Shown one piece after another: positions 98 through 42,621 of a stretch of DNA of 47,013 nt. The first letter of the stretch is position 1, and each line of letters starts with the position of its first letter. Source of the stretch: a virus (lineage: Duplodnaviria; Heunggongvirae; Uroviricota; Caudoviricetes). Location: IMG/VR virus record IMGVR_UViG_2541047907_000003; one strand, 5' to 3'. The notes beneath the pieces were generated by a model. That model worked only from the letters and a program-made list of their open reading frames with translations, searched no databases and had not been told where the DNA came from. Position numbers and translations under genes: made by a program.

Positions 98-673
98 CTA
101 CGGCAGTGCTGGCCATTCAATATCCTGTGAAGTTGACGTATCAACACGGTTCAGCAATACCCGATACTTTTTCCATGCTTCCAGCAACGAGATTTCTTCC
201 TCCGTTGCAATTTCCAGATCTGCAGCATCCTGAAGCGGCGCAATATGCTCACTGGCTACCTGCATCAGGTTGTTTTTTGTTTCTTCCGCCTCCCGGATCC
301 GGAACAGTTTTTCTGCTTCCGTATCCTTCACCCAGGCTGTGCCGTTCCACTTCTGAAACTCTCCTTCCGGCGATAACCAGGTAACATTTTCCGGTAACGG
401 ACCGAGTTCAGAAATAAATAACGCGTCGCCGGAAGCCACGTCATAAACCGTTTTACCCCGATGATCTTCAACGAGATGCCACGATGCCTCATCACTGTTG
501 AAAACAGCCACGAAGCCTGCCGGAATATCTGGCGGTGCAATATAGGTACTGTTTGCTGGCAGACCTGTATGAGGCGGAATATATGCGTCACCTTCACCAA
601 TAAATTCATTAGTTCCGGCCAGCAGATTATAAATTTTTATGGTCCGTGGTTGTTCACTCATTCTGAATGCCAT
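98..673 (-). CDS. tfa: tail fiber assembly protein (lambda Tfa-like)
   Basis: 191-aa ORF; translation [24 protein letters not shown]... recognised as lambdoid Tfa; start shares 1 nt with stf stop (coupled). Confidence 0.85.
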
Positions 674-3456
674 TATGCAAGCCTCACAATATAGTTAAAT
701 GCGATGTTTTTGACGGTGTTTTCCGCGTTACCCGCAGCGTTAACGGTGATGGTGTGTCCATGTGAGCCAATCGCAACAGAGTGCGTATGAGCACCAATAC
801 CGACAGTATGTGCGTGAGCACCTGCAGATGCAGCTGTGCCGCTGACACTATGAGTGTGCGCTCCTGCAGCACTTGTATTCACACTGGCCGCAGACACTAC
901 CTTATGTACTGACCCATTTTGTGACCACTGGCTGACTGCTGATGCGCCTGTGACACTATGAGTATGTTTTCCGGCACTTGCGGCTGTACCGCTCACACTG
1001 TGCGTATGCGCCCCGGTGTTATTCGTGGATTTAGTGCCGTAATCAAACGACGATGTGGTTTTCGTCCCCAAATCCGTACTGGATGCGCTGGCGCTGTGGG
1101 TGTGCGATTTAATGCCGTCCTGTTCCTGAGACAATACGGCCCGACCACTGGCAGGTTTGCCCTTAATCGTCCAGCCACGCATATCAGGGATCACGCCTGA
1201 CGGATAAGCGGTTGCAAGTTTCGGGTAAGCGGATTTGTCAAAAGTCTGCCCCTGCATCAGGGCATAACCAGACGGAACGGTATCTGATGGCCACGGGATT
1301 GGTGCGCCAGGCGGATAAAACTGCTCTGATGGCGTATAGAGTGAATAAACTGTACCGTCCGTTAACCCTTCCGGCTTATTAGCAGAATATGCTGGTGACG
1401 TATGAATCGTCACGCTGGCATTACTGGTATAATCCCATTGAATATTTACACCAGTCGCATAATTTCCGATTGCAACGTAAATATCGTAAGTATCACCAGA
1501 TGTATTGACCCAGGCAAAATTTGTAAACCCTGTCGATGTGCGCTGCCATAAAGCACCAGTAATCCCCTTCGGATTACCATTACCTGCACGCAAAACAAGT
1601 TCAGATATACCTGCCTGTTGAGGTGACCCCACGTTAAATCCAGCGCCACCAATCAACGTAATTGAAACAACAGAACTCGCCTGTGGCATGGTTACCGTTG
1701 CTAATTTGAACCAACCAGCACCACCGCTGAATGACATTGTTGTTGAGTTAAGCGTACCAATATCTTTCGGCGTCAGTGTTATATCCGCTGAAAGCGCCTT
1801 ACCATTCACCTTACGGGCAGAAGGTACCCGACCATTCGCATTATCATTAGCTGCTTTCACTGCTTTCGGTGTCGCGGCAAGCGTTTCAGATGCGCTGTTG
1901 GTTGCACTACTGAGCTGGACAATTCCTTTTTGTGCTGTCGTAGCGTCCTGTGCGGTGTATTTCCCGTTAGCCAGGTCATACGCGGCCTTAACGGCTTTTG
2001 GCGTTGCCGCCTGTGACTCGGAAGTGCTGTTGGTCGCACTGCTAAGCTGTACTACCCCCTTTTTCGTCGTGCTCGCATCCTCAAGCGCCACAGCGGATGC
2101 AATATCCTCTGCCCGTTTTGCTGCTGTCTCGGCGCGCGTTGCTGCGGATTCTGCCGTACTTTTGCTCTGTGCTGCCGCTGCCGCACTGCCAGCAGCCTCT
2201 GTCGCCTTCGTGGATGCCGTCGTGGCGCTGCCACTCGCTGCTGACGCCTGTCTGGTCGCCTCATCTTTTGAAGCAGATGCCGATGATGCCGATGACGCCG
2301 CCGAACTGGCTGACGATGCGGCAGCCGTTTTTGAGGATTCTGCGCTGGTTTCCGACGCTTTCGCGTTCGTTTCGGATGTCTTCGCTGCGGAAGCAGAACT
2401 CGCTGCTGCCGTGGCCTGTTCAGTGGCTTCGCCAGCCTTCGTTGTGGCTGTTGAAGCGGATGATGCGGCGCTTTCTGCCGACTTTCCGGCAGCGGTGGCA
2501 CTGGCTGAGGCCTGCCCGGCATTTGTTGACGCGGCGCTGGCAGATGAGGCAGCCGCTGTTTTTGAGTCTGCTGCTGCGGAGGCACTCTGTGCTGCTGCCG
2601 TCTCAGAAGACTTAGCGTTCGTCTCGGACGTTTTTGCCGCCTTCGCGGAATTGCCTGCCGCTGTTGCCGAGGAGGCTGCACTACTGGCGCTCGAGGCTGC
2701 GCTCGTTTCTGATGATTTTGCCGCCTCTTTTGAAGCCGACGCATCCCGGGCTGAGGTGGCAGCTTCTGACGCTTTCGTGGTCGCGGTGGATGCAGAAGTG
2801 GCGGCTGATTGTTGTGACGCTGAAGCATTCGTTTCTGACGTTTTCGCCGCACCGGCACTGGTGGCCGCCGCGCTTTTTGAGGACTCTGCAGCGGCAGCAC
2901 TTTTTGAGGCTTCAGTGGCCTTTGTTGATGCCGTTCCTGCGCTGGAAGACGCTGACTGAGCCGACGACGCGGCCTGTCCGGCTGACGTGCTGGCTGCACG
3001 TGCTGAATCTGCAGCATCAGTCGCACGGGTTGCCGCCTCACTGGCAGATGTGCTGGCATCACTGGCTGACTTCTTTGCGGCTGCCGTGTTCTGTGCCACC
3101 ACGGACGCGTTACGCGCCACCTCTTCCACCATCAGTTCAAAACGACGCAGTGCCTCCGGACGGGCATCATCCTCCGTCATGGCACCGAGAAAATCATTCA
3201 GCGTACCGGGTTGAGAATCTTCATACACGGTGATGGTCCCGGCATGTGACGGCGGGAATCCTTCCACCAACAGAATAACGCTGTACTGACCGTACTCAAC
3301 GTCCATGCTGTAACGCCCGGCTTCATCCGGATTTTCTGAGGCCAGCGTGTTCACCACCACCGTGGTGCTGTTACGTTTTGCTTTCAGCTGGATTGTGCAG
3401 TTCTGTACCGGTTTTCCTGTGCCGTCTTTCAGTACACCTGAAATCTTTACTGCCAT
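673..3456 (-). CDS. stf: side tail fiber protein (lambda Stf-like) with long Ala/Ser/Thr-rich repeat region and C-terminal GAHTHS-type repeats
   Basis: ORF 673..3462; N-terminus [26 protein letters not shown]... matches lambda Stf; start placed at the MAVK Met (third codon of the track ORF). Confidence 0.85.
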
Positions 3457-22434: not shown

Positions 22435-22460
<26 letters not shown>

Positions 22461-22980
22461 TCAGCAACCCCGGTATCAGTTCATCCAGCGCGGCTGCTTT
22501 GTTCATGGCTTTGATGATATCCCGTTTCAGGAAATCAACATGTCGGTTTTCCAGTTCCGGAAAACGCCGCTGCACCGACAGGGGGATCCCGTCGAGAATA
22601 CTGGCAATTTCACCTGCGATCCGCGACAGCACGAAAGTACAGAATGCGGTTTCCACCACTTCAGCTGAGTCTCTGGCATTCTTCAGTTCCTGTGCGTCGG
22701 CCTGCGCACGCGTAAGTCGATGGCGTTCGTACGCAATAGTCCCTGGCTGGAGATCTGCCTCGCTGGCCTGGCGCAGTTCTTCAACCTCCCGGCGCAGCTT
22801 TTCGTTCTCAATTTCAGCATCCCTTTCGGCATACCATTTTATAACGGCGGCAGAGTCATAAAGCACCTCATTACCCTTGCCACCGCCTCGCAGAACGGGC
22901 ATTCCCTGTTCCTGCCAGTTCTGAATGGTACGGATACTCGCACCGAAAATGTCAGCCAGCTGCTTTTTGTTGACTTCCAT
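22435..22980 (-). CDS. Nu1: terminase small subunit Nu1
   Basis: 181-aa ORF MEVNKKQLADIFGASIRTIQNWQEQGMPVLRGGGKGNEVLYDSAAVIKWYAERD (winged HTH); lambda Nu1-like. Confidence 0.95.
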
Positions 22981-22984
22981 TGTT

Positions 22985-23200
22985 CATTCCACGGACAAAA
23001 ACAGAGAAAGGAAACGACAGAGGCCAAAAAGCTCGCTTTCAGCACCTGTCGTTTCCTTTCTTTTCAGGGGGTATTTTAAATAAAAACATTAAGTTACGAC
23101 GAAGAAGAACGGAAACGCCTTAAACCGGAAAATTTTCATAAATAGCGAAAACCCGCGAGGTCGCCGCCCCGTAACCTGTCGGATCGCCGGAAAGGACCCG
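22985..23200. other. lambda-type cos site (cosB R elements, cosN cohesive end, cosQ side)
   Basis: reverse complement of about 23158-23169 reads GGGCGGCGACCT (lambda 12-nt cohesive end) followed by CGCGGGTTTTCGCTATTTATGAAAATTTTCCGG; three CGTTTCC-type R elements near 23010-23020, 23047-23057, 23110-23119 between cosN and Nu1. Confidence 0.85.
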
Positions 23201-23368
23201 AAAAATGATAATAATTATCATCTACATGTCACAACGTGCATCTACGCCATCAAACCACGTCAAATAATCAATTATGACGCAGGTATCGTATTAATTGATC
23301 TGCATCAACTTAACGTAAAAACAACTTCAGACAATACAAATCAGCGACACTGAATACGGGACAACCTC

Positions 23369-23602
23369 ATGTCAACGAAGAACAGAACCCGCAGAACAAC
23401 AACCCGCAACATCCGCTTTCCTAAACAAATGATTGAACAAATTAACATCGCTCTTGATCAAAAAGGGTCCGGGAATTTCTCAGCCTGGGTCATTGAAGCC
23501 TGCCGCCGGAGACTGTGCTCAGAAAAAAGAGTTTCTCCTGAAGCAAACAAAGAAAAGAGTGACATTACTGAATTGCTCAGAAAACAGGTCAGACCAGATT
23601 GA
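23369..23602 (+). CDS. small basic protein, possible ribbon-helix-helix DNA binder
   Basis: 77-aa ORF MSTKNRTRRTTTRNIRFPKQMIEQINIALDQKGSGNFSAWVIEACRRRL; pattern resembles Arc/MetJ-type RHH; about 200 nt from cosN. Confidence 0.4.
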   Translation: MSTKNRTRRTTTRNIRFPKQMIEQINIALDQKGSGNFSAWVIEACRRRLCSEKRVSPEANKEKSDITELLRKQVRPD

Positions 23603-23644
23603 AGCAATTTAGATAATCGTGCAGACTACGCCCCCTCATATCAC

Positions 23645-24070
23645 ATGGAAGGTTTATCTATGGATCAGGTAGTCATTTTTAAACAAATATTTGATAAAGT
23701 TCGAAACGATTTAAACTATCAATGGTTTTATTCTGAGCTAAAACGTCACAATGTCTCACATTACATTTACTATTTAGCCACAGAGAATGTTCATATTGTA
23801 TTAAAAAATGATAATACAGTGTTATTAAAGGGCCTAAAAAACATTGTGTCTGTCAAATTTTCAAAGGATAGGCATCTTATAGAAACGACCTCTAATAAGC
23901 TGAAATCCAGAGAGATCACATTTCAGGAATACAGAAGAAACCTTGCTAAAGCAGGAGTTTTTCGGTGGGTTACAAATATCCACGAACAAAAAAGATATTA
24001 CTATACCTTTGATAATTCATTACTATTTACTGAAAGCATCCAGAAAACTACACAGATCTTACCACGCTAA
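23645..24070 (+). CDS. hypothetical protein in AT-rich moron block
   Basis: 141-aa ORF in AT-rich DNA; I do not recognise the family with confidence (possibly a Qin-prophage YdfO-like protein). Confidence 0.4.
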
Positions 24071-24221
24071 ACCATAACGTCCGGCTTCTCTCACTCCTGA
24101 GCCGGACTGCATTGGTTTAATAAAAACCATCAACAATTGTGATTTAGATATTCGGAACCATTCAAATATAACAAAACCCCGTAAAAACGAGGTTTATGGA
24201 TAAATTTTATTATTGAATACA

Positions 24222-24395
24222 TCAGATTAAATTAATCTTGACATCATAGCTTTCAAGACCCGTCATTTTTTCCCGTGCGGTAAACTGAATACTGGTAACT
24301 TCTTTCCCGGTCTTTTTCTTAAGTTCAATAATTTTTTTTGTTATATATTCAGAAATATCTGCTTCTGCTTTTGTTTTTAAGTTTTCAATATTCAT
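24222..24395 (-). CDS. GnsA/GnsB-family small protein
   Basis: ORF below the 60-aa track threshold found by hand: MNIENLKTKAEADISEYITKKIIELKKKTGKEVTSIQFTAREKMTGLESYDVKINLI with AGGAAA Shine-Dalgarno; strongly resembles E. coli GnsB. Confidence 0.6.
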   Translation of the reverse strand: MNIENLKTKAEADISEYITKKIIELKKKTGKEVTSIQFTAREKMTGLESYDVKINLI

Positions 24396-24566
24396 CATTT
24401 CCTCTTTTAGTCTGTTATGACTTTCCAGTTACACAGTAAGTCGATTATATGGTGCAAACGTGTAAAAGATAAGATGAAACATCGCAATAATCAACATACG
24501 ATAGTCTAAATTTTACACAAACAGACAAAGAGAATTTTCCTGAATTATCAATGCAATAGCATCAAA

Positions 24567-24797
24567 TCAACTCAAGAGCCTTATTGCTGCTTCCAGAATT
24601 TCTTCTGAAGTAACATGTCGATCCGCGGCTACATAAATGACTTTATGATCTCCGGTCAGAGATGGAAACCCTGCGGCCATTACAGTAAGGTGTGTTTTTT
24701 CGCCATTTGGATATTCACGCATGATGGTGTTAACTCCAGTCATCGCTGGCACTACCACTGCTGGTTCAGAGTTAAAAAAAACTATGATTTTTTTCAT
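24567..24797 (-). CDS. hypothetical small protein
   Basis: track ORF 24567..24839; probable start at internal MKKIIVFFNSEPAVVVPAMTGVNTIMREYPNGEKTHL. Confidence 0.4.
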   Translation of the reverse strand: MKKIIVFFNSEPAVVVPAMTGVNTIMREYPNGEKTHLTVMAAGFPSLTGDHKVIYVAADRHVTSEEILEAAIRLLS

Positions 24798-25068
24798 GAT
24801 GTTACCGTAGTATGTGAGTATCCATCGAATAGACACCAAGCAAAAAAGCTCCCGAAGGAGCCTTCATTTTCACTTTTTTAAATCCAACGACAGACGGCTG
24901 GCATTTAAGTATTGTGAAATATTATCAAATGTAATCATCATTGATTTACAAAAGATACATTTTGCCCCGAAAGGATTCATGTCAGAAACATCAAAAGATG
25001 ATGTTCTATACTGGGAACCATGACAACACGGGCATCTAAAGTGAATATGGTTTGTAATATTGTCTACC

Positions 25069-25281
25069 TCAAAGCGCCACTACATGAACAGCGGCAGGAC
25101 CTTTAGGTCCGTTCTCAATACCAAATTCAACTTCCTGATTCTCAGTTAATGTTTTGAAATCGTTGCTCTGAATTGCTGAGAAATGGACAAACACATCTTT
25201 GCTGCCATCTTTCGGCGTGATGAAACCAAAACCTTTTTCAGGGTTAAACCATTTCACTAAACCAGTCATTTTGTTAGACAT
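25069..25281 (-). CDS. cspI: cold-shock domain protein (CspA family)
   Basis: 70-aa [56 protein letters not shown] with RNP1 motif KGFGFI and RNP2 VFVHF. Confidence 0.7.
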
Positions 25282-25643
25282 AATTATTACCTTTTGAAGA
25301 AATTAGCCCTTGGGCAGAATGGTCCGAAAAAAAATATCAGAGAGAAAAACCAACAAGGAAATCTCAAGAGGTACAAATAATAAAATTATAACAATGACTG
25401 CTTCAGATAAATTTGTAACAAACCAGAACACCATTAACGCATGATTAACCACCCATAGCAAGGATTACTTTTGTAAAGAAAAACACAGCAATGAAAGAAT
25501 AGCTTTATTTATTAATAAAACGTGTCATTCTGATTAAGACCTTTTATCTTACCCTTAAGATTTCAGGAATTTTGGCTCATGGAAGAGTCCTTTTTATTTA
25601 AATTTTACATTCCGCGATGTAAATGTTCCGATTTAATATTACC

Positions 25644-26671
<1,028 letters not shown>

Positions 26672-26749
26672 AGATATTTATGATGAGGACGCTCGTGCTT
26701 ATTGGCAGGATTTTCAATCTTAAAGGAGTACTGATGCTGCAGATAAGAC

Positions 26750-26977
26750 TCAACTTTTCTGACAATTTTCTGCTACTTCCAGGAAGACTTGCCGGACGCT
26801 CATTCTGGCTGCTGCCTCGTAAAACTCCAGCGCAGCTCCTTCAACACGGTCCATGGCGACATCCAGGCCAAAAATTTCACCGTCAAAGCGTTCTTTGTCC
26901 TGTAAGGCTACAGTTACCGTAACTTTATTCTCAAAATTACGGACTCCTTTCACAACCAGTTCATAGTCTTGAGTCAT
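26750..26977 (-). CDS. hypothetical protein between holin and endolysin (YdfR-like position)
   Basis: 75-aa ORF MTQDYELVVKGVRNFENKVTVTVALQDKERFDGEIFGLDVAMDRVEGAALEFYEAAARM filling the holin-lysozyme gap. Confidence 0.5.
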   Translation of the reverse strand: MTQDYELVVKGVRNFENKVTVTVALQDKERFDGEIFGLDVAMDRVEGAALEFYEAAARMSVRQVFLEVAENCQKS

Positions 26978-26981
26978 TGGA

Positions 26982-27197
26982 TTATTCTCCTCTCGCAGCC
27001 TTACGCCTGTCTTCTTTAATCTTGAAATAAAGATTTGTCAGATACGTCAGCAGGCCAAAAACCAGGCTACCCAGCACACCGATTGCAGCCCACTGTGACG
27101 GAGTTACTTTATCGAGTAACTGCAATGCCCAGAAACCAGCATTACCCGCCGATGTGCCATAGGCAACACCTGTTGTTAACTTATCCATTGATTTCAT
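26982..27197 (-). CDS. class II holin, P21 S-like pinholin with dual-start motif
   Basis: track ORF 26982..27272; start placed at [71 protein letters not shown] (71 aa, two TM segments, MKSM dual start). Confidence 0.85.
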
Positions 27198-27416
27198 ATC
27201 CTCACCCCGATGTACACGGATGGTGCAATATGTTTGAAAAGATCGGAGTCTACGGGGTAGTTTTGACAGCACACGTTGTTCTCAACGGCGCTAAAAAAAC
27301 ATACACATTAAAAATGTGGGTAATTATTTTGAAAGAAAGTCATATATAAAATAATAATACGAGAAATGTTTTCATATTTAGTGTACTGTATACGGCCATT
27401 TATACAGGAAAAGCCT

Positions 27417-27587
27417 ATGTCAGAACGTAAAGACTCAAAATCACGCCGTAATTATCTCGTTAAATGTTCCTGCCCAAACTGCACCCAAGAGTCAGAACAC
27501 AGTTTTTCAAGAGTACAAAAAGGTGCCCTTTTGATCTGCCCTCATTGCAACAAAGTATTCCAGACAAATCTTAAAGCTGTAGCCTGA
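27417..27587 (+). CDS. small zinc-ribbon protein
   Basis: track ORF 27366..27587; probable start MSERKDSKSRRNYLVKCSCPNCTQESEHSFSRVQKGALLICPHCNKVF with CxxC...CxxC; RBS AGGAAAAG upstream. Confidence 0.5.
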   Translation: MSERKDSKSRRNYLVKCSCPNCTQESEHSFSRVQKGALLICPHCNKVFQTNLKAVA

Positions 27588-27644
27588 TTGATTTTATTAG
27601 TAACAAGTATTTTTTATATTTTAATAATATATTTAAAACAGATA

Positions 27645-27668
27645 ATAAAAAACCCGCCTGAGCGGGTT
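27645..27668 (-). terminator. rho-independent terminator downstream of cspB
   Basis: stem AAACCCGC-TCAG-GCGGGTTT followed on minus strand by TTTTTATTAT. Confidence 0.65.
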
Positions 27669-27950
27669 TGAGATTGTGGTGCTTTTTGTGGGAGTCATCC
27701 ACTTACGCACTTTGTTTTGCGATGCCAGCAGTTAGCTTCTGCTGTGAAACTATTCATGCAGCAAACCTGCACTTCACCACAATGGTTAGCATACTTTTCC
27801 TGATTAAGATTTTGCCAAATATGCTGGCCATTGTTTCATGTATTGGACCTCCTTACTTTTTATTAAAGAGATCCAATATTCACTACTCTGTCCGTATCTC
27901 TACTCAGGCATCAGCCTTCTTCGTTATCGTATACAGACGAGCGATGAATT

Positions 27951-28166
27951 TTAATCAGTAATGATGACATTTGCTGCTGCAGGACCTTTAGCACCACTCT
28001 CTATAGAGAAGGTAACCTTTTGACCTTCAAATAAGGTTCGATAATTATCATTCTGAATCGCAGAAAAATGCACAAACACATCTTTACTACCATCAACAGG
28101 AGAAATAAAGCCGAAACCTTTATCAGCGTTAAACCATTTTACTAAACCAGTCATTTTATTTGACAT
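27951..28166 (-). CDS. cspB: cold-shock domain protein (CspA family)
   Basis: 71-aa [56 protein letters not shown]. Confidence 0.7.
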
Positions 28167-28466
28167 TCTACATTCCTTAACTTGAGCCTTTCGGCATAAA
28201 TGGTTTGCATAACAGAAACGACTTCGTACTTAATTGGAGAGACTCAAAGAAGGAATAAGTGAATAACACCTGAAATGAGAACTGCTTTAGTAAACTACTT
28301 CGTATATCGTCTGTTCTTCAAACCGACGCAATCATTAACGCATAGTTGAACATATGAAGCAATGTTTATTTTAGACATCCAGCCATCTTCAACCCCATCA
28401 AAAAACTATAGCTTTCTTCAGGAACGTGTGTATAGTGCGCCAAGTTATCAGTATTAAGGAATTTTT

Positions 28467-28679
28467 TTGTCCCGTAAAATGACAGGAATTGTCAAAACCT
28501 TTGACGGCAAAAGCGGCAAGGGTCTTATCACCCCATCCGATGGTCGTATCGATGTCCAGCTTCATGTTTCAGCGCTCAATCTCCGCGATGCAGAAGAAAT
28601 TACCACCGGATTACGCGTGGAATTTTGCCGGATAAATGGTCTGCGTGGCCCTTCAGCTGCCAATGTTTACCTTTCATGA
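28467..28679 (+). CDS. cspF: divergent cold-shock domain paralog
   Basis: 70-aa [73 protein letters not shown]; degenerate RNP motifs. Confidence 0.6.
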
Positions 28680-28733
28680 GCTATATTAAAGCTTTAATTT
28701 CAGGCCCCATCGGATCACACATGGAGAGTTTTT

Positions 28734-28823
28734 ATGAATAACCCCGTCTGTCTTGATGACTGGTTGATTGGCTTTAAAAGCTTATGCTGTACTTTGGCCG
28801 TAATAGCTCTGCTAATAATATAA
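28734..28823 (+). CDS. candidate 29-aa hydrophobic small protein
   Basis: hand-found [32 protein letters not shown] with GGAGAG about 7 nt upstream; lies between cspF and a plus-strand terminator. Confidence 0.35.
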
Positions 28824-28975
28824 TAAGCAGACTCATTGTGTTTAGGGACATTGTACTGGAAGAAAACATTTTAAACATCAGGCAAATAACCAAGTCACCA
28901 GCTAAATAATAAGTTAACAGACATGAGTCCCGGGATGAGATTCATCATTACCATTGCCCCATTTAAAGCACAAAA

Positions 28976-29005
28976 CCCGCTCATCAGCGGGTTTTCTACT
29001 TTTTC
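28976..29005 (+). terminator. rho-independent terminator
   Basis: stem AAACCCGCT-CATC-AGCGGGTTT followed by TCTACTTTTTCTT on the plus strand. Confidence 0.6.
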
Positions 29006-29100
29006 TTAACGTCGGGTATACAAAGCCCATCGTTGAAAAAAATTTATCCATATTTTTTGAAAAATGCAAACATCATGTCGCCATCTTCAGCAAAAATCAT

Positions 29101-29853
29101 TTATCTCGTCACCTTCCTCAATTGCGCTTCCGCGTATGCTTCTTCCTGCCAGCACTTTGTTACCAGTTTACCAATGACGTCCGCATACCCCTTATACCAC
29201 TGATAATCGGTCAGGTCTGGTACCAGCTTCTGGACATGACGTCGTGCCAGCGTGGTCGGTAAACGACTAAACCGGTTTCCATTACAACGCCCACAAATCT
29301 TATATACCGGTACGCCATGAAACCGGGTTCTTTTTTCATCCAGAACAATCCCTTTACCCTTACACCCTCTGCACGCTGTGCTGGCTTCGCCCTTACCATG
29401 GCAATGCTGACATAGTTCCTTCACCCATTCTTCCTTGATTACAGATTCCCCGCGTCTGTAGTGTTTCACCACTTCGCGCAATACATTATAAAATCCCGTA
29501 CCTGAACAATGCTCACAGCGAGCCTTACTTGCCGCAGACCTGGAGTAATCAGCAAAGGCAAAACTCACGAGGTAAGGAATAATCTGTAACCGGATTTCTT
29601 CACTCAATTTGTTCAATGTCGGGTTATCCAGTGCCATCGCGTAATTTAGCAGGCCTTCAATCGCAAACTGAGGGTCCTGAACACCAACTTTTGCCAGAAA
29701 TAAGGCCAACCCAAGTGGTGCTTTCGACTGCACCATCCCCTGCGCTGCCATTACATCCGTAATTGTTAAACAACCGGTGCCTGTCGCTGGAGCGTCATCG
29801 CTCAATTTTGGAGATTTTGGGGAGTAATATTTTGGTAAGGCTTCAAGGTTCAT
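29101..29853 (-). CDS. late-gene antiterminator Q (Qin QuuQ-like)
   Basis: track ORF 29101..29883; start at MNLEALPKYYSPKSPKLSDDAPATGTGCL; Cys/His zinc-binding cluster CEHCSGTG...CQHCHGKG...CRGCKGKG. Confidence 0.75.
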   Translation of the reverse strand: MNLEALPKYYSPKSPKLSDDAPATGTGCLTITDVMAAQGMVQSKAPLGLALFLAKVGVQDPQFAIEGLLNYAMALDNPTLNKLSEEIRLQIIPYLVSFAFADYSRSAASKARCEHCSGTGFYNVLREVVKHYRRGESVIKEEWVKELCQHCHGKGEASTACRGCKGKGIVLDEKRTRFHGVPVYKICGRCNGNRFSRLPTTLARRHVQKLVPDLTDYQWYKGYADVIGKLVTKCWQEEAYAEAQLRKVTR

Positions 29854-29866
29854 GCTCGTTCTCCAC

Positions 29867-30955
29867 TTACGCCAGTACGCCAATTGCCAGCGCGCGATCG
29901 ATAAAACGAAATATCAGCTCCAGTTGGGAGCCATACTTCTCTTCAAATGCCACTGTATCCGTATGCAGCTCGTTGTGATGCTTTCTGCACAAAGGCAACA
30001 CAAAGAGATCATGTGCTTTTGTTCCCATTCCGCCCTGCCCGTGACCAATCAGATGATGCGGATCGTCGGCTGGCATACCGCAGCAAGCACACGGCTGTGT
30101 CTTAACCCAACGTGTGTATTTCTCCTTAACCCAGCGGCGACGTTTAGGCAGCTTCATGAAAGATTCCGGAGACTCTGGATCAACGGTGATGCTTACCACC
30201 GTCTTTTCCTGTGGTAGTTTTTGTTGCTGGTGGGCGTAAGGCAACGGTGCAAGATTTTTTGTGCGTTGTTTCAATATGCTGGTGGCGGTCTGCTCTCCCG
30301 GTACGATGTCGCTTTCGCGGTACACCGAGCAGATTTTTTCCGCTGGTAATCCCAGCGAACGACGCGATACAGCCTCAGGTAGTGCATCCACCACCTGATT
30401 GCAGACCGCCCACCAGGATAATTCAGCCAAAGATAATTCCCGCTCCTGCGTACCGCTTATTGCGTGACGGATGACGTCAATCACCCATGCTGTCAGATTT
30501 TGTTGAGCAAGCAGCTCCAGTGATTCCGATGTCTGGTCACGCAGTTGGTTGTCGCAGTGCCAACACAACACCATTGCGCCGGTACCATAACGGTGAATGA
30601 CTGTTTCAGTGTGATGGTAATCGCCATTAGGCCACTGGCAGGATGTAACATGACGTAATAGCCAGTCAGACAATGAGCCAACGCCGCCAGCAGCACGAAT
30701 CACCCGTTCGTTACTAAAAAACGGCAGCAATGTTTTGTCTTCCGCCAGCGGCTGGCCAACGGCAGGAACGACTCCGGATGGCAGATTACGCATGCTTTTT
30801 GGTTCCGGTTCCACCAGCACTCGAGGATTATGAAATATCTGTATGGATTCACGGCCCGGCTTAAGGACCACCAGCCCAAGCTCAGGCACCAGAACAGGTC
30901 TAAGTAATACCCGCACGTTACCTCCAGATCCGTTGCTGGAAAGTGCGGGACGCAC
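29867..30955 (-). CDS. DUF968-like protein with C-terminal HNH-like Cys/His motif (YdfU-like)
   Basis: 362-aa ORF; C-terminus CACCGMPADDPHHLIGHGQGGMGTKAHDLFVLPLCRKHHNELH; true start uncertain. Confidence 0.6.
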   Translation of the reverse strand: MRPALSSNGSGGNVRVLLRPVLVPELGLVVLKPGRESIQIFHNPRVLVEPEPKSMRNLPSGVVPAVGQPLAEDKTLLPFFSNERVIRAAGGVGSLSDWLLRHVTSCQWPNGDYHHTETVIHRYGTGAMVLCWHCDNQLRDQTSESLELLAQQNLTAWVIDVIRHAISGTQERELSLAELSWWAVCNQVVDALPEAVSRRSLGLPAEKICSVYRESDIVPGEQTATSILKQRTKNLAPLPYAHQQQKLPQEKTVVSITVDPESPESFMKLPKRRRWVKEKYTRWVKTQPCACCGMPADDPHHLIGHGQGGMGTKAHDLFVLPLCRKHHNELHTDTVAFEEKYGSQLELIFRFIDRALAIGVLA

Positions 30956-31196
30956 GTGGTGGGCGTTCGGAGTAAGGCAATCTGACTGAGATTATCCAGT
31001 GACGGTAGTCGAGACTAAGGGCTTTCTTAACCTCGTATCCGCGCCTGCGGTAACACTGAATTATCCATTCAGCCTGCTCTTCAGTGCATGGAGGGTGTTG
31101 GAACCATTCAGACTTGAATGCGTGAGAATACCGCTCGTGCGTGCAGGCAAGAACGGGCGAATTATCAGAATTGTAATATTTTACGTTGCGTGCCAT
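30918..31196 (-). CDS. hypothetical protein
   Basis: 92-aa ORF MARNVKYYNSDNSPVLACTHERYSHAFKSEWFQHPPCTEEQAEWIIQCYRRRGYEV; overlaps the start of the upstream gene. Confidence 0.4.
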   Translation of the reverse strand: MARNVKYYNSDNSPVLACTHERYSHAFKSEWFQHPPCTEEQAEWIIQCYRRRGYEVKKALSLDYRHWIISVRLPYSERPPRASRTFQQRIWR

Positions 31197-31262
31197 CGGT
31201 TTTCTCCGGTGGCACGGTGTTACTCAGCGGGAGTTCAGCCCCGCGCAAGATTGTAGATGAGT

Positions 31263-31514
31263 TTATTCTTCTGCAAAAGCTGAAAAGCCTGCTTTTATTC
31301 CGATCTCTTTCAGTGCCTGTAATGAAGTGACAAACTCACCTTCGCGCAAGATAAATCTGTCTGTCACTCGACCATCCACAAAATTAATTAACGCAGCCCC
31401 ATTCTTTCGCAAACACATAATGCGGTAATGACTAACAAGATTTCCATTTTCAACGCACACAGCATAGAGGCCATCTTCACAAAAAATTTTACGCAGTTCT
31501 TCGATGTTCATCAT
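31263..31514 (-). CDS. hypothetical protein (possibly Rem-like)
   Basis: 83-aa ORF MMNIEELRKIFCEDGLYAVCVENGNLVSHYRIM...; position and length match what I recall for Qin rem, sequence identity not verified. Confidence 0.4.
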   Translation of the reverse strand: MMNIEELRKIFCEDGLYAVCVENGNLVSHYRIMCLRKNGAALINFVDGRVTDRFILREGEFVTSLQALKEIGIKAGFSAFAEE

Positions 31515-31630
31515 CAGAATCCTTCCGGATAATTAGCTCTCCCCTTTAAGGGACCATCCCTCTTATCCCTGCGCGCTACTTAAGTATTTTTGATTCTATT
31601 CCGGCACCGTCCAGAACTTCAAACGCGTTG

Positions 31631-31662
31631 AAAATAAAAACAAAAACCCGCCGAAGCGGGTT
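31631..31662 (-). terminator. rho-independent terminator downstream of hokD
   Basis: stem AACCCGC-TTCG-GCGGGTT followed on minus strand by TTTTTGTTTTTATTTT. Confidence 0.7.
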
Positions 31663-31730
31663 AAGTGCGGGTGCGTTGAGGATGCCTGACACATCAGAGG
31701 TGGCGAGGGATTTCTCCCTCGCCGGGTCTC

Positions 31731-31886
31731 TTACTCCTCAGGTTCGTAAGCTGTGAAGACAGCGACCTCCGTCTGGCCGGTTCGGATTCGTACCTCGCAG
31801 AGGTCTTTCCTCGTTACCAGTGCCGTCACTATGACGGTTAAACAGATGACGATCAGGGCGATTAACATCGCCTTTTGCTGCTTCAT
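31731..31886 (-). CDS. hokD: Hok-family type I toxin (small membrane peptide)
   Basis: hand-found 51-aa ORF MKQQKAMLIALIVICLTVIVTALVTRKDLCEVRIRTGQTEVAVFTAYEPEE, below the track threshold; a Hok sequence. Confidence 0.85.
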   Translation of the reverse strand: MKQQKAMLIALIVICLTVIVTALVTRKDLCEVRIRTGQTEVAVFTAYEPEE

Positions 31887-31957
31887 AGCCTGCTTCTCCT
31901 GTCAACGCAAAGCAGAAGTGTCACCTTCGGTGCGAAACAGAGATGTCATGCTTTGGT

Positions 31958-32245
31958 TCAGAGAATGCGTTTGACCGCCTCGCTATATACTTCCGAGCGT
32001 TCTCTTTTCCCAACAGAAATCACGAAAACGACAACTTTCTCGTCTATAACCTGGTATACAAGGCGATAGCCTGAAGACCGGAGCTTAATCTTGTAACAAT
32101 CAGGCATACCACGGAGCTTGTTTGCTTCAATCCGGGGTGACTCAAGTACTTCAACCAGCTTCTTTTTCAACTGTTCACGTACCGTCGAGCCCAGCTTTCG
32201 CCATTCCTTTAGTGCCCGCTCGTCAAAATCCAGAAAATACGCCAT
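31958..32245 (-). CDS. relE: RelE mRNA interferase toxin
   Basis: 95-aa ORF MAYFLDFDERALKEWRKLGSTVREQLKKKLVEVLESPRIEANKLRGMPDCYKIKLRSSGYRLVYQV. Confidence 0.9.
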   Translation of the reverse strand: MAYFLDFDERALKEWRKLGSTVREQLKKKLVEVLESPRIEANKLRGMPDCYKIKLRSSGYRLVYQVIDEKVVVFVISVGKRERSEVYSEAVKRIL

Positions 32246-32484
32246 CAGAGTTCATCCAGCGTCACACGTACTGGCTTAGGATTACGAAGCCGTTCTTTCA
32301 CTATCTCCACAAGTTCAGCATCTTCATCACTCAGGAGTGTCTGTTTGAACGGCAAGCGTTCATTGTCAGCGATATACTCGAGCATGAGACGAAGCGCTTC
32401 AGAAGGAGTTACACCCATTTTTTCAAGCGCGGCGTAAGAACGCGCTTTAAGTTCATCGTCAATACGCAGGTTAATGCTACCCAT
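32245..32484 (-). CDS. relB: RelB antitoxin
   Basis: 79-aa ORF MGSINLRIDDELKARSYAALEKMGVTPSEALRLMLEYIADNERLPFKQTLL; stop overlaps relE start. Confidence 0.9.
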   Translation of the reverse strand: MGSINLRIDDELKARSYAALEKMGVTPSEALRLMLEYIADNERLPFKQTLLSDEDAELVEIVKERLRNPKPVRVTLDEL

Positions 32485-32496
32485 GTCTTACACCTC

Positions 32497-32522
32497 TTGT
32501 AATTACAAATGTCATTACAAGT
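32497..32522. promoter_or_regulatory. relBE promoter/operator with TTGTAAT repeats
   Basis: TTGTAATTACAAATGTCATTACAAG just upstream of relB; palindromic TTGTAAT/ATTACAA units read directly. Confidence 0.6.
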
Positions 32523-32814
32523 ATCGCACTACAACATGCTTAGGGCAAGTCACGAAGGAAGTCAGAAAGTAGTCGTAAGAACGGTGATCACTGTCCGCTT
32601 TCTGCCAGGAGCAGCCATTGCTAAGTCCATCCTGTATTGTGCAGGTCAGCTCGTTTTTAAAGAGTCCGGCCATCATCTTACTGGTACAGACACCATATAC
32701 TTTGTGACGGTCAGGCTACATATGCACAACTCAACTTATTCATCTATTTTTTGCTTTAGCATGTCAGTGTTGCTTTCTCGTCGGCGGGTGAGCGGTGACC
32801 TGACCTGTCGATAA
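32509..32814 (+). CDS. hypothetical protein
   Basis: 101-aa ORF divergent from relB; no recognisable domain; could be non-coding. Confidence 0.25.
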   Translation: MSLQVSHYNMLRASHEGSQKVVVRTVITVRFLPGAAIAKSILYCAGQLVFKESGHHLTGTDTIYFVTVRLHMHNSTYSSIFCFSMSVLLSRRRVSGDLTCR

Positions 32815-33016
32815 AGGAACGTAACACGTTTTATGCAACACCCGCATGCGGCAGAAAATTATTGCCGAACGTTTACCCCTGTCAACAAGCTTTACTTTCT
32901 GAGGCGCGCCAGCCCGCGAGGAAAACAATCTGAACATCAAACAATTAATGACACAAGAAATACGATTAAAGATTTTTTTGTGCATGCCGATAGTGCTTTT
33001 TTAAAAGGAGAAATCT

Positions 33017-33349
33017 ATGTCTGTCACAATTCAGGGAAATACCTCAACCGTTATTTCAAACAACTCCGCCCCGGAAGGAACATCAGAAATAGCCAAAATC
33101 ACAAGACAAATTCAGGTGCTGACTGAAAAGCTTGGGAAAATCTCATCGGAAGAGGGGATGACGACACAGCAGAAAAAAGAAATGGCTGCATTGGTACAGA
33201 AGCAAATTGAAAGCCTCTGGGCTCAACTGGAGCAGTTGTTAAGGCAGCAGGCAGAGAAAAAGAATGAAGACGCGACAGTTCAGCCTGATAAAAAAGAAGA
33301 GAAAAAAGACGATACAAATACCGCTGGCACCATTGATATTTACGTCTAA
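33017..33349 (+). CDS. flxA: FlxA-like protein
   Basis: 110-aa ORF MSVTIQGNTSTVISNNSAPEGTSEIAKITRQIQVLTEKLGKISSEEGMTTQQKKEMAALVQKQIESLWAQLEQ. Confidence 0.75.
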   Translation: MSVTIQGNTSTVISNNSAPEGTSEIAKITRQIQVLTEKLGKISSEEGMTTQQKKEMAALVQKQIESLWAQLEQLLRQQAEKKNEDATVQPDKKEEKKDDTNTAGTIDIYV

Positions 33350-33429
33350 GTGACAGCCGTATTGTGGCCCTCATCGGGCCACTTTTCGCCATCAGCCTTT
33401 TCTTTAAAGACATATTATCTTTGTATCAT

Positions 33430-42206: not shown

Positions 42207-42263
42207 TTCTGGTGACGTTTGGCGGTATCAGTTTTACTCCGTGACTGCTCTGCCGCCGTTTTT
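42207..42263 (+). ncRNA. dicF: DicF small regulatory RNA
   Basis: TTTCTGGTGACGTTTGGCGGTATCAGTTTTACTCCGTGACTGCTCTGCCGCC followed by GTTTTT; matches the DicF sequence as I recall it, immediately upstream of dicB. Confidence 0.8.
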
Positions 42264-42432: not shown

Positions 42433-42621
42433 ATGAAAACGTTATTACCAAACGTTAATACGTCTGAAGGTTGTTTTGAAATTGGTGTCACTATCAGTAA
42501 CCCTGTATTTACTGAAGATGCCATTAACAAGAGAAAACAAGAACGGGAGCTATTAAATAAAATATGCATTGTTTCAATGCTGGCTCGTTTACGTCTGATG
42601 CCAAAAGGATGTACACAATGA
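42433..42621 (+). CDS. dicB: cell division inhibitor DicB
   Basis: track ORF 42328..42621; start at MKTLLPNVNTSEGCFEIGVTISNPVFTEDAINKRKQERELLNKICIVSMLARLRLMPKGCTQ (62 aa). Confidence 0.85.
   Translation: MKTLLPNVNTSEGCFEIGVTISNPVFTEDAINKRKQERELLNKICIVSMLARLRLMPKGCTQ

Follow-up and report, generated by a model that had tools for sequence, protein, structure and literature searches.

A canonical relBE operon as the probable cargo of an IS1202-family insertion sequence at the start of hokD in a Qin-like prophage

Introduction

How a type II toxin-antitoxin operon comes to lie directly beside a type I toxin gene is the question raised by a 47,013-nucleotide stretch of viral DNA (Caudoviricetes; IMG/VR record IMGVR_UViG_2541047907_000003), referred to here at its full length as the window, in which relBE is followed by hokD. 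The original prediction, made from the letters of positions 31958-32522, described a relBE operon with a TTGTAAT operator stacked next to hokD and counted both, together with the dicF/dicB module, among the host growth-control systems that this prophage carries within 11 kb. The distance is correct, as hokD, DicF and dicB fall within 10,891 bp (hokD to dicB) of a Qin-like prophage, and the identity of the operon holds. The implied view of relBE as native growth-control cargo of the prophage does not hold, as the operon appears to have arrived in a 3.3-kb element of the IS1202 family. From the comparisons described below we consider it very probable that this canonical relBE forms the conserved passenger module carried by a 3301-bp transporter insertion sequence (IS) of the IS1202/ISNCY family inserted at the start of hokD, and the adjacency of the two toxin loci would then exist because the element inserted there, not because growth-control modules accreted.

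Results

An insertion between the hok/sok leader and hokD

Joined in silico, positions 35470-35202 and 31885-31600 form a 555-nt hokD/sok locus that E. coli NRG 857C and strain EA2 contain without a break at 100% identity, and that is covered over at least 80% of its length in 3249 of 5426 complete E. coli genomes. The intact locus of NRG 857C, which had looked intact in an earlier survey as well (PMC7232551), has the window's neighbours on both sides, the P-loop ATPase gene and rem. Since the joined leader and gene are contiguous in genomes with the intact locus, the segment 31900-35200 is an insertion into hokD/sok. It sits exactly between the sok/mok leader and the hokD start codon, and the last 15 bases of the leader, now orphaned (AGGAGAAGCAGGCTA), recur directly ahead of hokD, as would be expected if the element had inserted between the leader and the start codon of a prophage hokD with a 15-bp target duplication. 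The two copies of the duplication agree at 14 of 15 positions in the window and at all 15 in Shigella flexneri.

The segment has the ends of an insertion sequence. They read TGT...ACA and form imperfect terminal inverted repeats (TIRs) of 26 bp, with 19 of 26 positions matching between the left repeat (IRL), at the relE end, and the right repeat (IRR), at the transposase end, and the inner part of the repeat recurs subterminally as AATGTCCCC near the transposase end and as GTGTCA/ATGTCA near the relE end. Such ends and subterminal repeats, combined with a transposase that has helix-turn-helix (HTH) domains and a DDE core, are hallmarks of the IS1202 family (PMC10132070; bioRxiv 10.1101/2022.12.17.520857). 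An alternative placement of the ends at 31901-35201 was superseded, because the copies in Shigella and on plasmids fix the TGT/ACA ends at 31900-35200. The transposase scores 463.8 bits against the NCBIfam ISNCY model NF033594 (cut-off 250) and matches HTH_28 and rve_3 in Pfam; its plasmid copies are named 'IS1202-like element ISEsa1 family transposase' in RefSeq. An internal IS end between flxA and the transposase, which would mark off a separate 1.6-kb IS unit, was sought in the window, and no sequence resembling an inverted repeat was found there.

Full-length copies of the 3301-bp element, 99.5-99.8% identical, were found on plasmids of E. coli, Salmonella enterica and four Enterobacter species. 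One, from a Salmonella IncI plasmid, lies in a pndA-type hok gene beside trbA and has the duplication ATCATAGCCCCTCCA; another, from an IncF plasmid of Enterobacter asburiae, lies in a hok of the R1 type and has the duplication TGGCCTTCTTCTCC. These two copies differ from the window at 7 and 8 nucleotides, respectively, none of them in relB, relE or relO. A single INPHARED phage record, that of Escherichia phage PhiR42_1 from host ECOR13 (PV340562.1, 11493-14766, 99.8%), also contains the element, so at least one deposited phage genome transports relBE. A scan for the terminal repeat over one genome per species located ends in Klebsiella, Enterobacter, Kluyvera, Citrobacter, Pseudocitrobacter, Huaxiibacter, Superficieibacter, Leclercia, Pantoea, Buttiauxella, Escherichia and Shigella. 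IS1202-family elements of marine Pseudomonadales and of other metagenome-assembled genomes, found with a degenerate inverted-repeat pattern, were excluded, as they lack both the IRL and the IRR sequence seen here.

Three parts can be distinguished in the element: a conserved passenger module (element positions 1-713, window 31900-32612) with the terminal repeat, relE, relB, relO and the promoter; a transposase module (element positions ~1692-3301); and a variable middle, which here contains ydfV and flxA. In a 6093-bp variant found on an Enterobacter adelaidei plasmid (L018, 662-6754) and in Superficieibacter electus (L054, 1677-7769), the relBE module is 98.9% and the transposase module 91.5% identical to the window, and the place of ydfV-flxA is taken by genes that, named from the translations of their open reading frames (ORFs) alone, are cation-diffusion-facilitator-like, cytochrome b561-like and an IS110-type transposase. 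The ydfV frame straddles 32612, the boundary of the conserved module, gives no match in Pfam or NCBIfam, and is doubtful as a gene. On an Enterobacter hormaechei IncFII plasmid (L005, 2469-4810), a 15-bp hok-type spacer separates the relE end from a 1.6-kb relative that is 91% identical and has no cargo. In the head-to-tail junctions of this locus and of L084 and L143, the transposase end of one copy, or of a cargo-less relative, is separated from the next relE end by exactly one 15-bp hok-type duplication, and such junctions could be either tandem targeted insertions, which have been described for the transporter IS ISKpn21 (PMC10132070; bioRxiv 10.1101/2022.12.17.520857), or circle-junction-like products. 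A 535-bp contig of Streptomyces sp. E11-3 (L048) contains an enterobacterial hok::element junction identical to the Enterobacter type, most likely through assembly contamination.

Apparent preference for the start regions of hok genes

Insertion beside a hok start codon is not peculiar to hokD. Fifteen pairs of ends have duplications of 14-16 bp, with 8 different sequences, and 14 of the 15 are perfect; the sites are independent, and their replicons include chromosomes, plasmids of the IncI and IncF types and one phage record. The reading frames of at least 8 different Hok proteins begin no more than a few bases from the relE end, and Rfam sok matches stop exactly at the transposase end in 7 further loci. 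With metagenome and IMG/VR scans added, 168 transposase-side ends with usable flanks were sampled, and 130 match the sok/hok-leader profile, which ends 1-8 nt from the element. Other hok contexts comprise a truncated hokD leader (17 ends), head-to-tail IS junctions with a hok-type spacer (5) and an inverted hok insertion (1). About 91% of the 168 ends lie in a hok context, a figure that counts sequences and not events; distinct flanks, which are the better measure, number 35 of leader type against 13 in non-hok DNA.

A short motif recurs at these sites. In most hok leaders GGCA[AT] (GGCAW) stands just beyond the duplication, 15-16 nt from the element, and it is found exactly 15-16 nt outside the element in 3 of the 13 distinct non-hok flanks as well (L028, L064 and L077/L160), where ~0.05 would be expected by chance. 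The shared spacing suggests that a short motif is recognised and that the cut is made a set distance away. We propose that the element would select hok-family translation-initiation regions, with the GGCAW motif 15-16 bp from its transposase end, and hok loci may offer a landing site that is safe and particularly common on plasmids and prophages. Two further observations concern these sites. At the GGCA[AT] point the hok leader (GCAAGGAGAAG) is similar to the inner portion of the terminal repeat (GCAAAGCAGAAG), and the non-hok site of Kluyvera sp. STS39-E (L064, 6628-6741), with a perfect 16-bp duplication, overlaps an Rfam match to the Hfq-binding small RNA isrO (58.8 bits).

Weighing the readings of the locus

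With moderate confidence, and leaning on sequence comparison throughout, we extend the reading given above to propose that relBE travels as a passenger of an undescribed IS1202-family transporter IS that would target hok/sok start regions via GGCAW, disconnecting hok from Sok and fusing it to the relBE transcript. In the searchable sources, which excluded ISfinder, TnCentral and most subscription journals, we found no account of relBE carried by an IS, of a hok-targeting IS or of ISEsa1/IS1202 elements with toxin-antitoxin passengers, so that absence is not proof.

Several points weigh against this proposal. The element may already have a name in ISfinder or TnCentral, which lay outside the search, and for ISEsa1, its nearest named relative (1609 bp, cargo-less), neither a target duplication nor a target was found (Harmer and Hall). 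About 9% of the ends lie in non-hok DNA. In Citrobacter portucalensis (L044/L045) the hok insertion is reversed, with the transposase end beside the hok frame and a perfect 15-bp duplication, so that either orientation is not absolute or an inversion has occurred. Hok loci are mutually homologous, so common descent partly confounds the observed target conservation. The relE-hokD junction was folded in search of an IS end that sequesters the hok ribosome-binding site (RBS), and shows no significant structure (z = -1.06). Finally, the duplication in the window has one mismatch, and a near-identical transposase is flagged as partial by the PGAP annotation of the closest genome.

The mismatch and the partial call also favour another possibility, to which we give tentative credence: that the copy in the window is a fossil whose transposase has ceased to move it, leaving relBE to act as a chromosomal toxin-antitoxin system. 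Its transposase has E307 where the plasmid copies have V, and K-12 keeps only the last 49 codons (ydfW). However, the 446-aa ORF is full-length and 1-2 residues from plasmid copies annotated as intact, both ends of the element are complete, and the 99.5-99.8% identity across genera argues for recent movement of the family. The element may still be active.

It is quite improbable that the 3.3-kb segment spreads among hok loci by homologous recombination through the hok/sok flanks and that its hok specificity is an artefact. The relatedness of hok loci makes flanking homology available, a single hokD site accounts for 92 of the 168 sampled ends, and the unequal divergence of the relBE and transposase modules in some variants (98.9% vs 91.5%) shows that recombination does reshape the element. 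But the duplication at each site is the locus's own sequence (ATAGCCTGCTTCTCC, ATCATAGCCCCTCCA, (A)TGGCCTTCTTCTCC, CATGGCTTCTTCTCC, TTTGTCAGCATATC), the distance from the insertion point to the ATG varies by several bases, non-hok sites show perfect 16-bp duplications and GGCAW at an equal spacing, and the head-to-tail junctions are spaced by one duplication length, as are the tandem targeted insertions of ISKpn21.

Least probable of all is that relBE is an ordinary resident module of Qin which came to adjoin hokD as toxin and growth-control genes gradually accreted in a 'moron' region: synteny with K-12 Qin extends over the whole neighbourhood, at least 80% of window 31500-33100 (hokD, relE, relB, ydfV and the start of flxA) is present in 1148 of 5426 complete E. 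coli genomes, and dicF, dicB, ydfD and a YdaT-family protein gene lie nearby, but the same prophage backbone exists with an uninterrupted hokD/sok and without relBE, IS ends, a transposase and a 15-bp duplication mark the relBE segment, which is found almost unchanged on plasmids of other genera, and, although empty sites could be precise secondary deletions through the 15-bp repeat, independent insertion sites exist.

The relBE operon and its operator

The element's cargo is the well-known relBE, and every part of the original prediction's description of the operon was confirmed. Genes for 79-aa RelB and 95-aa RelE lie on the (-) strand in the order antitoxin first, forming a bicistronic operon with coupled reading frames, and share a single base, 32245, between the relB stop TGA and the relE ATG (TGATG). 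Alignment to the characterised proteins, which had been suggested as a check, gives 95 of 95 identical residues (100%) with wild-type RelE of PDB 4V7K and 79 of 79 (100%) with RelB of PDB 4FXE chain A; RelB also matches the fragments 2K29 (residues 1-50) and 2KC8_B (residues 46-79). Against the RelE of PDB 4FXE there is a single difference, the crystal having the mutant A81 and the window the wild-type R81, so that the inactivating substitutions which would have spoken against a functional toxin are not present and RelE is wild type throughout. Catalysis is said by Neubauer et al. (2009) to depend, reportedly, on K52, K54, R61, R81 and Y87, and all five are present because the protein is wild type. 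Family models agree, with Pfam ParE_toxin (51 bits) and TIGR02385 RelE_StbE (54.7 bits, cut-off 27.9) for RelE, and Pfam RelB (112 bits) and the NCBIfam equivalog NF008412 (133 bits, cut-off 96) for RelB.

Between positions 31500 and 33399 the window differs from K-12 MG1655 by 3 single-nucleotide polymorphisms (SNPs) over 1.9 kb, two in the hokD 3' region (31689 and 31719) and one upstream of the promoter (32602), with none in relB, relE, hokD or relO. A decayed relBE was rejected, the sequence being identical to that of the functional K-12 system. Judged by every sequence criterion, the operon is the canonical, intact E. coli relBE type II toxin-antitoxin system and a full member of the RelBE family; it is already known, and the window adds nothing new on relBE function. 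RelE toxicity, its neutralisation by RelB and autorepression in vivo would be expected here from the identity with the experimentally characterised K-12 system.

The upstream repeats had been recognised as typical of autorepression, and they are indeed the published operator: the coding strand from 32520 to 32497 reads TTGTAATGACAT followed by TTGTAATTACAA, letter for letter the relO of PMC2812701, and the loss of operator binding that would have counted against the prediction is not indicated. In the work of Overgaard et al. 2009, relO consists of a pseudo-palindromic and a perfectly palindromic half-site, with hexads defined by mutagenesis and footprinting (PMC2812701); in the window the hexads occupy 32497-32502, 32503-32508, 32509-32514 and 32515-32520. 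TTGTAAT/ATTACAA occurs three times in these 24 bp, at 32497-32503 (+), 32508-32502 (-) and 32520-32514 (-). Over the whole window the TTGTAAT heptamer is not enriched (8 found, 6.0 expected), and only the local clustering is significant, as none of 1000 shuffles had three copies within 24 bp.

The relBE promoter (PrelBE) was placed by mapping the numbering of PMC2812701 onto the window sequence and is in that sense putative. A scan for the sigma-70 consensus detected no promoter at relO, because PrelBE has only 8 of 12 consensus matches and falls below the threshold. Mutations at -10 to -7 (TACT) abolish the promoter, and relO covers -10 to +17 (PMC2812701). Positions 31958-32522 take in relE, relB and relO, and the -35 hexamer (32543-32548) falls outside them. 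In the characterised system relO overlaps both the -10 box and the transcription start, and a ribbon-helix-helix dimer of RelB bound to its four hexads represses PrelBE. As long as RelB is in excess RelE serves as a co-repressor, and an excess of RelE destabilises the complex and releases repression (conditional cooperativity), RelB being a substrate of Lon (PMC2812701, PMC3507626).

Predicted consequences for hokD

The adjacency of hokD, 71 nt downstream of relE, is as originally described, but mere stacking of two systems is not an adequate account of it, as hokD is the third cistron of relBEF. A single full-length transcript, dependent on the relBE promoter, has been found to contain relB, relE and relF (hokD) (PMC3598666). 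Within 31500-32900 just one terminator-like site is present; it follows hokD and fits this co-transcription. Transcription from PrelBE would continue through hokD to this site (31645-31662) and yield a relBEF mRNA. The gene product matches Pfam HOK_GEF (82.9 bits), is named hokD in the closest genomes and is identical to K-12 HokD, with no SNPs in the coding sequence.

hokD here is not a complete hok/sok locus, because the leader that such a locus has contiguous with the gene lies 3.3 kb from its start codon: no Rfam sok match adjoins hokD, and the full-length sok/mok leader (Rfam RF01794; Table 1) is found at the far end of the element, on the same strand as the transposase gene and pointing into it, which puts that gene downstream of the hok promoter. 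A second hok reading frame was sought beside this orphan leader and beyond the transposase, and none was found there. A 25-codon mok-like frame (35259-35182) crosses the target duplication into the IS end. The insertion would have detached hok from its antisense-controlled leader and put it behind PrelBE; hok keeps its own RBS because the RBS was duplicated, and its own promoter, the mok frame and the Sok target would all have been removed.

IS150 and IS186 are the elements at other K-12 hok loci. In its account of the K-12 loci, PMC7232551 lists hokD as inactivated by a 'genetic rearrangement', citing Pedersen and Gerdes 1999, and on the present comparison that rearrangement is the insertion of the relBE-carrying element at the start codon. 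It resembles the IS-disrupted hok loci of that account in that mobile DNA inactivates hok, and differs in that the element at hokD carries relBE and that the same event recurs in many hok genes.

In other respects K-12 relBE (relBEF; b1564, b1563, b1562) is the same system, with the same RelB, RelE, HokD and relO in the same order rem-hokD-relE-relB-ydfV-flxA, but a deletion has left K-12 with neither the IRR end nor the orphan sok leader, and with only one copy of the duplication and a small part of the transposase. Similarity to K-12 ends at 33970, inside the transposase, and ydfW of K-12 (b1567, 49 aa) corresponds to the last 49 transposase codons (window 33786-33935 (-)); by this alignment it is a transposase remnant and not a gene in its own right. 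Because the deletion removed the IRR end, the duplication copy and the leader, the mobile-element nature of relBE is invisible in K-12.

Relation to known elements

The element shares with IS1202-family members such as ISKpn21 and the dif/pdif-targeting ISAjo2/ISAba32 the TGT...ACA ends, imperfect TIRs (22-29 bp in the family) and the subterminal inner repeat, a single HTH and DDE transposase of 394-507 aa, long duplications in some subgroups, occasional passenger genes, and sequence-targeted, largely oriented insertion with tandem copies one duplication apart (PMC10132070; bioRxiv 10.1101/2022.12.17.520857). It differs in its target, as described members use dif and the element in the window hok start regions; in the duplication, 14-16 bp here against reported classes of 3-6, 16-17 and 27-28 bp; and in cargo, since the five known transporter ISs (tIS) carry hypothetical proteins, whereas this element carries a characterised toxin-antitoxin operon with additional variable cargo. 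Tn3-family transposons with toxin-antitoxin pairs, as outlined in PMC7157771, are alike in having a type II pair inside a transposable element, with a plausible stabilising role, but differ in family and mechanism, and in that outline a type I toxin locus is not a target. By the same token, relBE may stabilise the element or the replicon in which it resides.

The reading proposed here would explain concretely how the relBEF operon and the truncated hokD arose. The 'chromosomal' relBE of E. coli would be recent mobile cargo, found nearly unchanged on Salmonella and Enterobacter plasmids, which bears on the debate between host stress module and selfish addiction. The ISEsa1 branch of the IS1202 family would gain a target and a duplication length, none having been known before, and the family would have a second case of site-directed insertion, this one into a sequence that occurs mostly on plasmids and prophages. 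If the reading is true, this would be the first transposable element bearing a type II toxin-antitoxin system that homes into type I toxin-antitoxin loci.

Prophage setting and other features

Table 1. Features of the relBE-carrying element and its surroundings in the window
Feature	Coordinates	Strand	Remarks
IS1202/ISNCY-family transporter IS (probable)	31900..35200	(-)	3301 bp; contains relE, relB, relO, ydfV, flxA and the transposase gene; ends 5'-TGT...ACA-3'
IRL (relE end)	31900..31925	(+)	TGTCAACGCAAAGCAGAAGTGTCACC; boundary the same in every copy
IRR (transposase end)	35175..35200	(-)	TGTTAACACCAAGCTGTAATGTCCCC, with subterminal repeat AATGTCCCC
Target duplication, hokD-side copy	31885..31899		GGAGAAGCAGGCTAT in the coding sense; from the hok Shine-Dalgarno to the AT of the ATG
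Target duplication, copy beside orphan sok/mok leader	35201..35215		One mismatch, at 35201
hokD (relF)	31731..31886	(-)	Hok-family membrane toxin, 51 aa; third relBEF cistron, cut off from its own leader
relE	31958..32245	(-)	95-aa ORF; ribosome-dependent mRNA endonuclease toxin
relB	32245..32484	(-)	79-aa ORF; ribbon-helix-helix antitoxin and autorepressor
relO operator	32497..32520	(-)	24 bp; half-sites TTGTAATGACAT and TTGTAATTACAA; four [A/T]TGT[A/C]A hexads, two per strand
PrelBE promoter (putative)	32520..32548	(-)	-35 TTGCCC 32548-32543, 17-nt spacer, -10 GATACT 32525-32520, start near G 32513
Intrinsic terminator-like hairpin and T run	31645..31662	(-)	After hokD
ydfV ORF	32509..32814	(+)	101 aa; divergent from relB, start inside relO
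flxA	33017..33349	(+)	110 aa; Pfam FlxA 53.8 bits; passenger gene of this element variant
Transposase	33786..35126	(-)	446 aa; N-terminal HTH domains and rve/DDE core
Orphan sok/mok leader	35205..35371	(-)	Rfam RF01794 sok, full-length, 111.2 bits (gathering score 59)
DicF	42207-42258	(+)	Rfam, 72.5 bits
dicB	42433-42621	(+)	62-codon frame inside a listed ORF

The prophage is Qin-like, being syntenic from ydfJ to rspB with the cryptic lambdoid prophage Qin (Kim) of K-12. In the closest complete genome and in K-12 the gene order is nohA, ynfO, ydfO, gnsB, cspI, rzpQ, rrrQ, essD, cspB, cspF, ydfT, ydfU, rem, hokD, relE, relB, ydfV and flxA, followed by dicC/dicA, dicF, dicB, ydfD, integrase and rspB. 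Window positions 22452-33970, from nohA to ydfW, are 99.3% identical to K-12, and further blocks match from dicC to intQ. The copy in the window is larger than K-12 Qin, and the aligned closest genome, HCP5S3_I2 (L001), has terminase, portal and integrase genes.

K-12 is without the 6.1 kb of window 33970-40085. Besides the rest of the transposase, this stretch holds a DUF977 protein gene, an IS3-family element with an ALIL frameshift pseudoknot (38905-39021), a YdaT-family protein gene (39843-40364) and, at 35475-36962, the gene of a 495-aa P-loop ATPase of the Sll1717 family. Elsewhere in the window, the Rfam scan matched IS009 RNA (221 bits) and two cspA-type thermoregulator leaders, the three matches lying at 132-330 (-), 25042-25427 (-) and 27935-28327 (-); the two leaders are presumably the 5' untranslated regions of cspI and cspB in the Qin cold-shock cluster.

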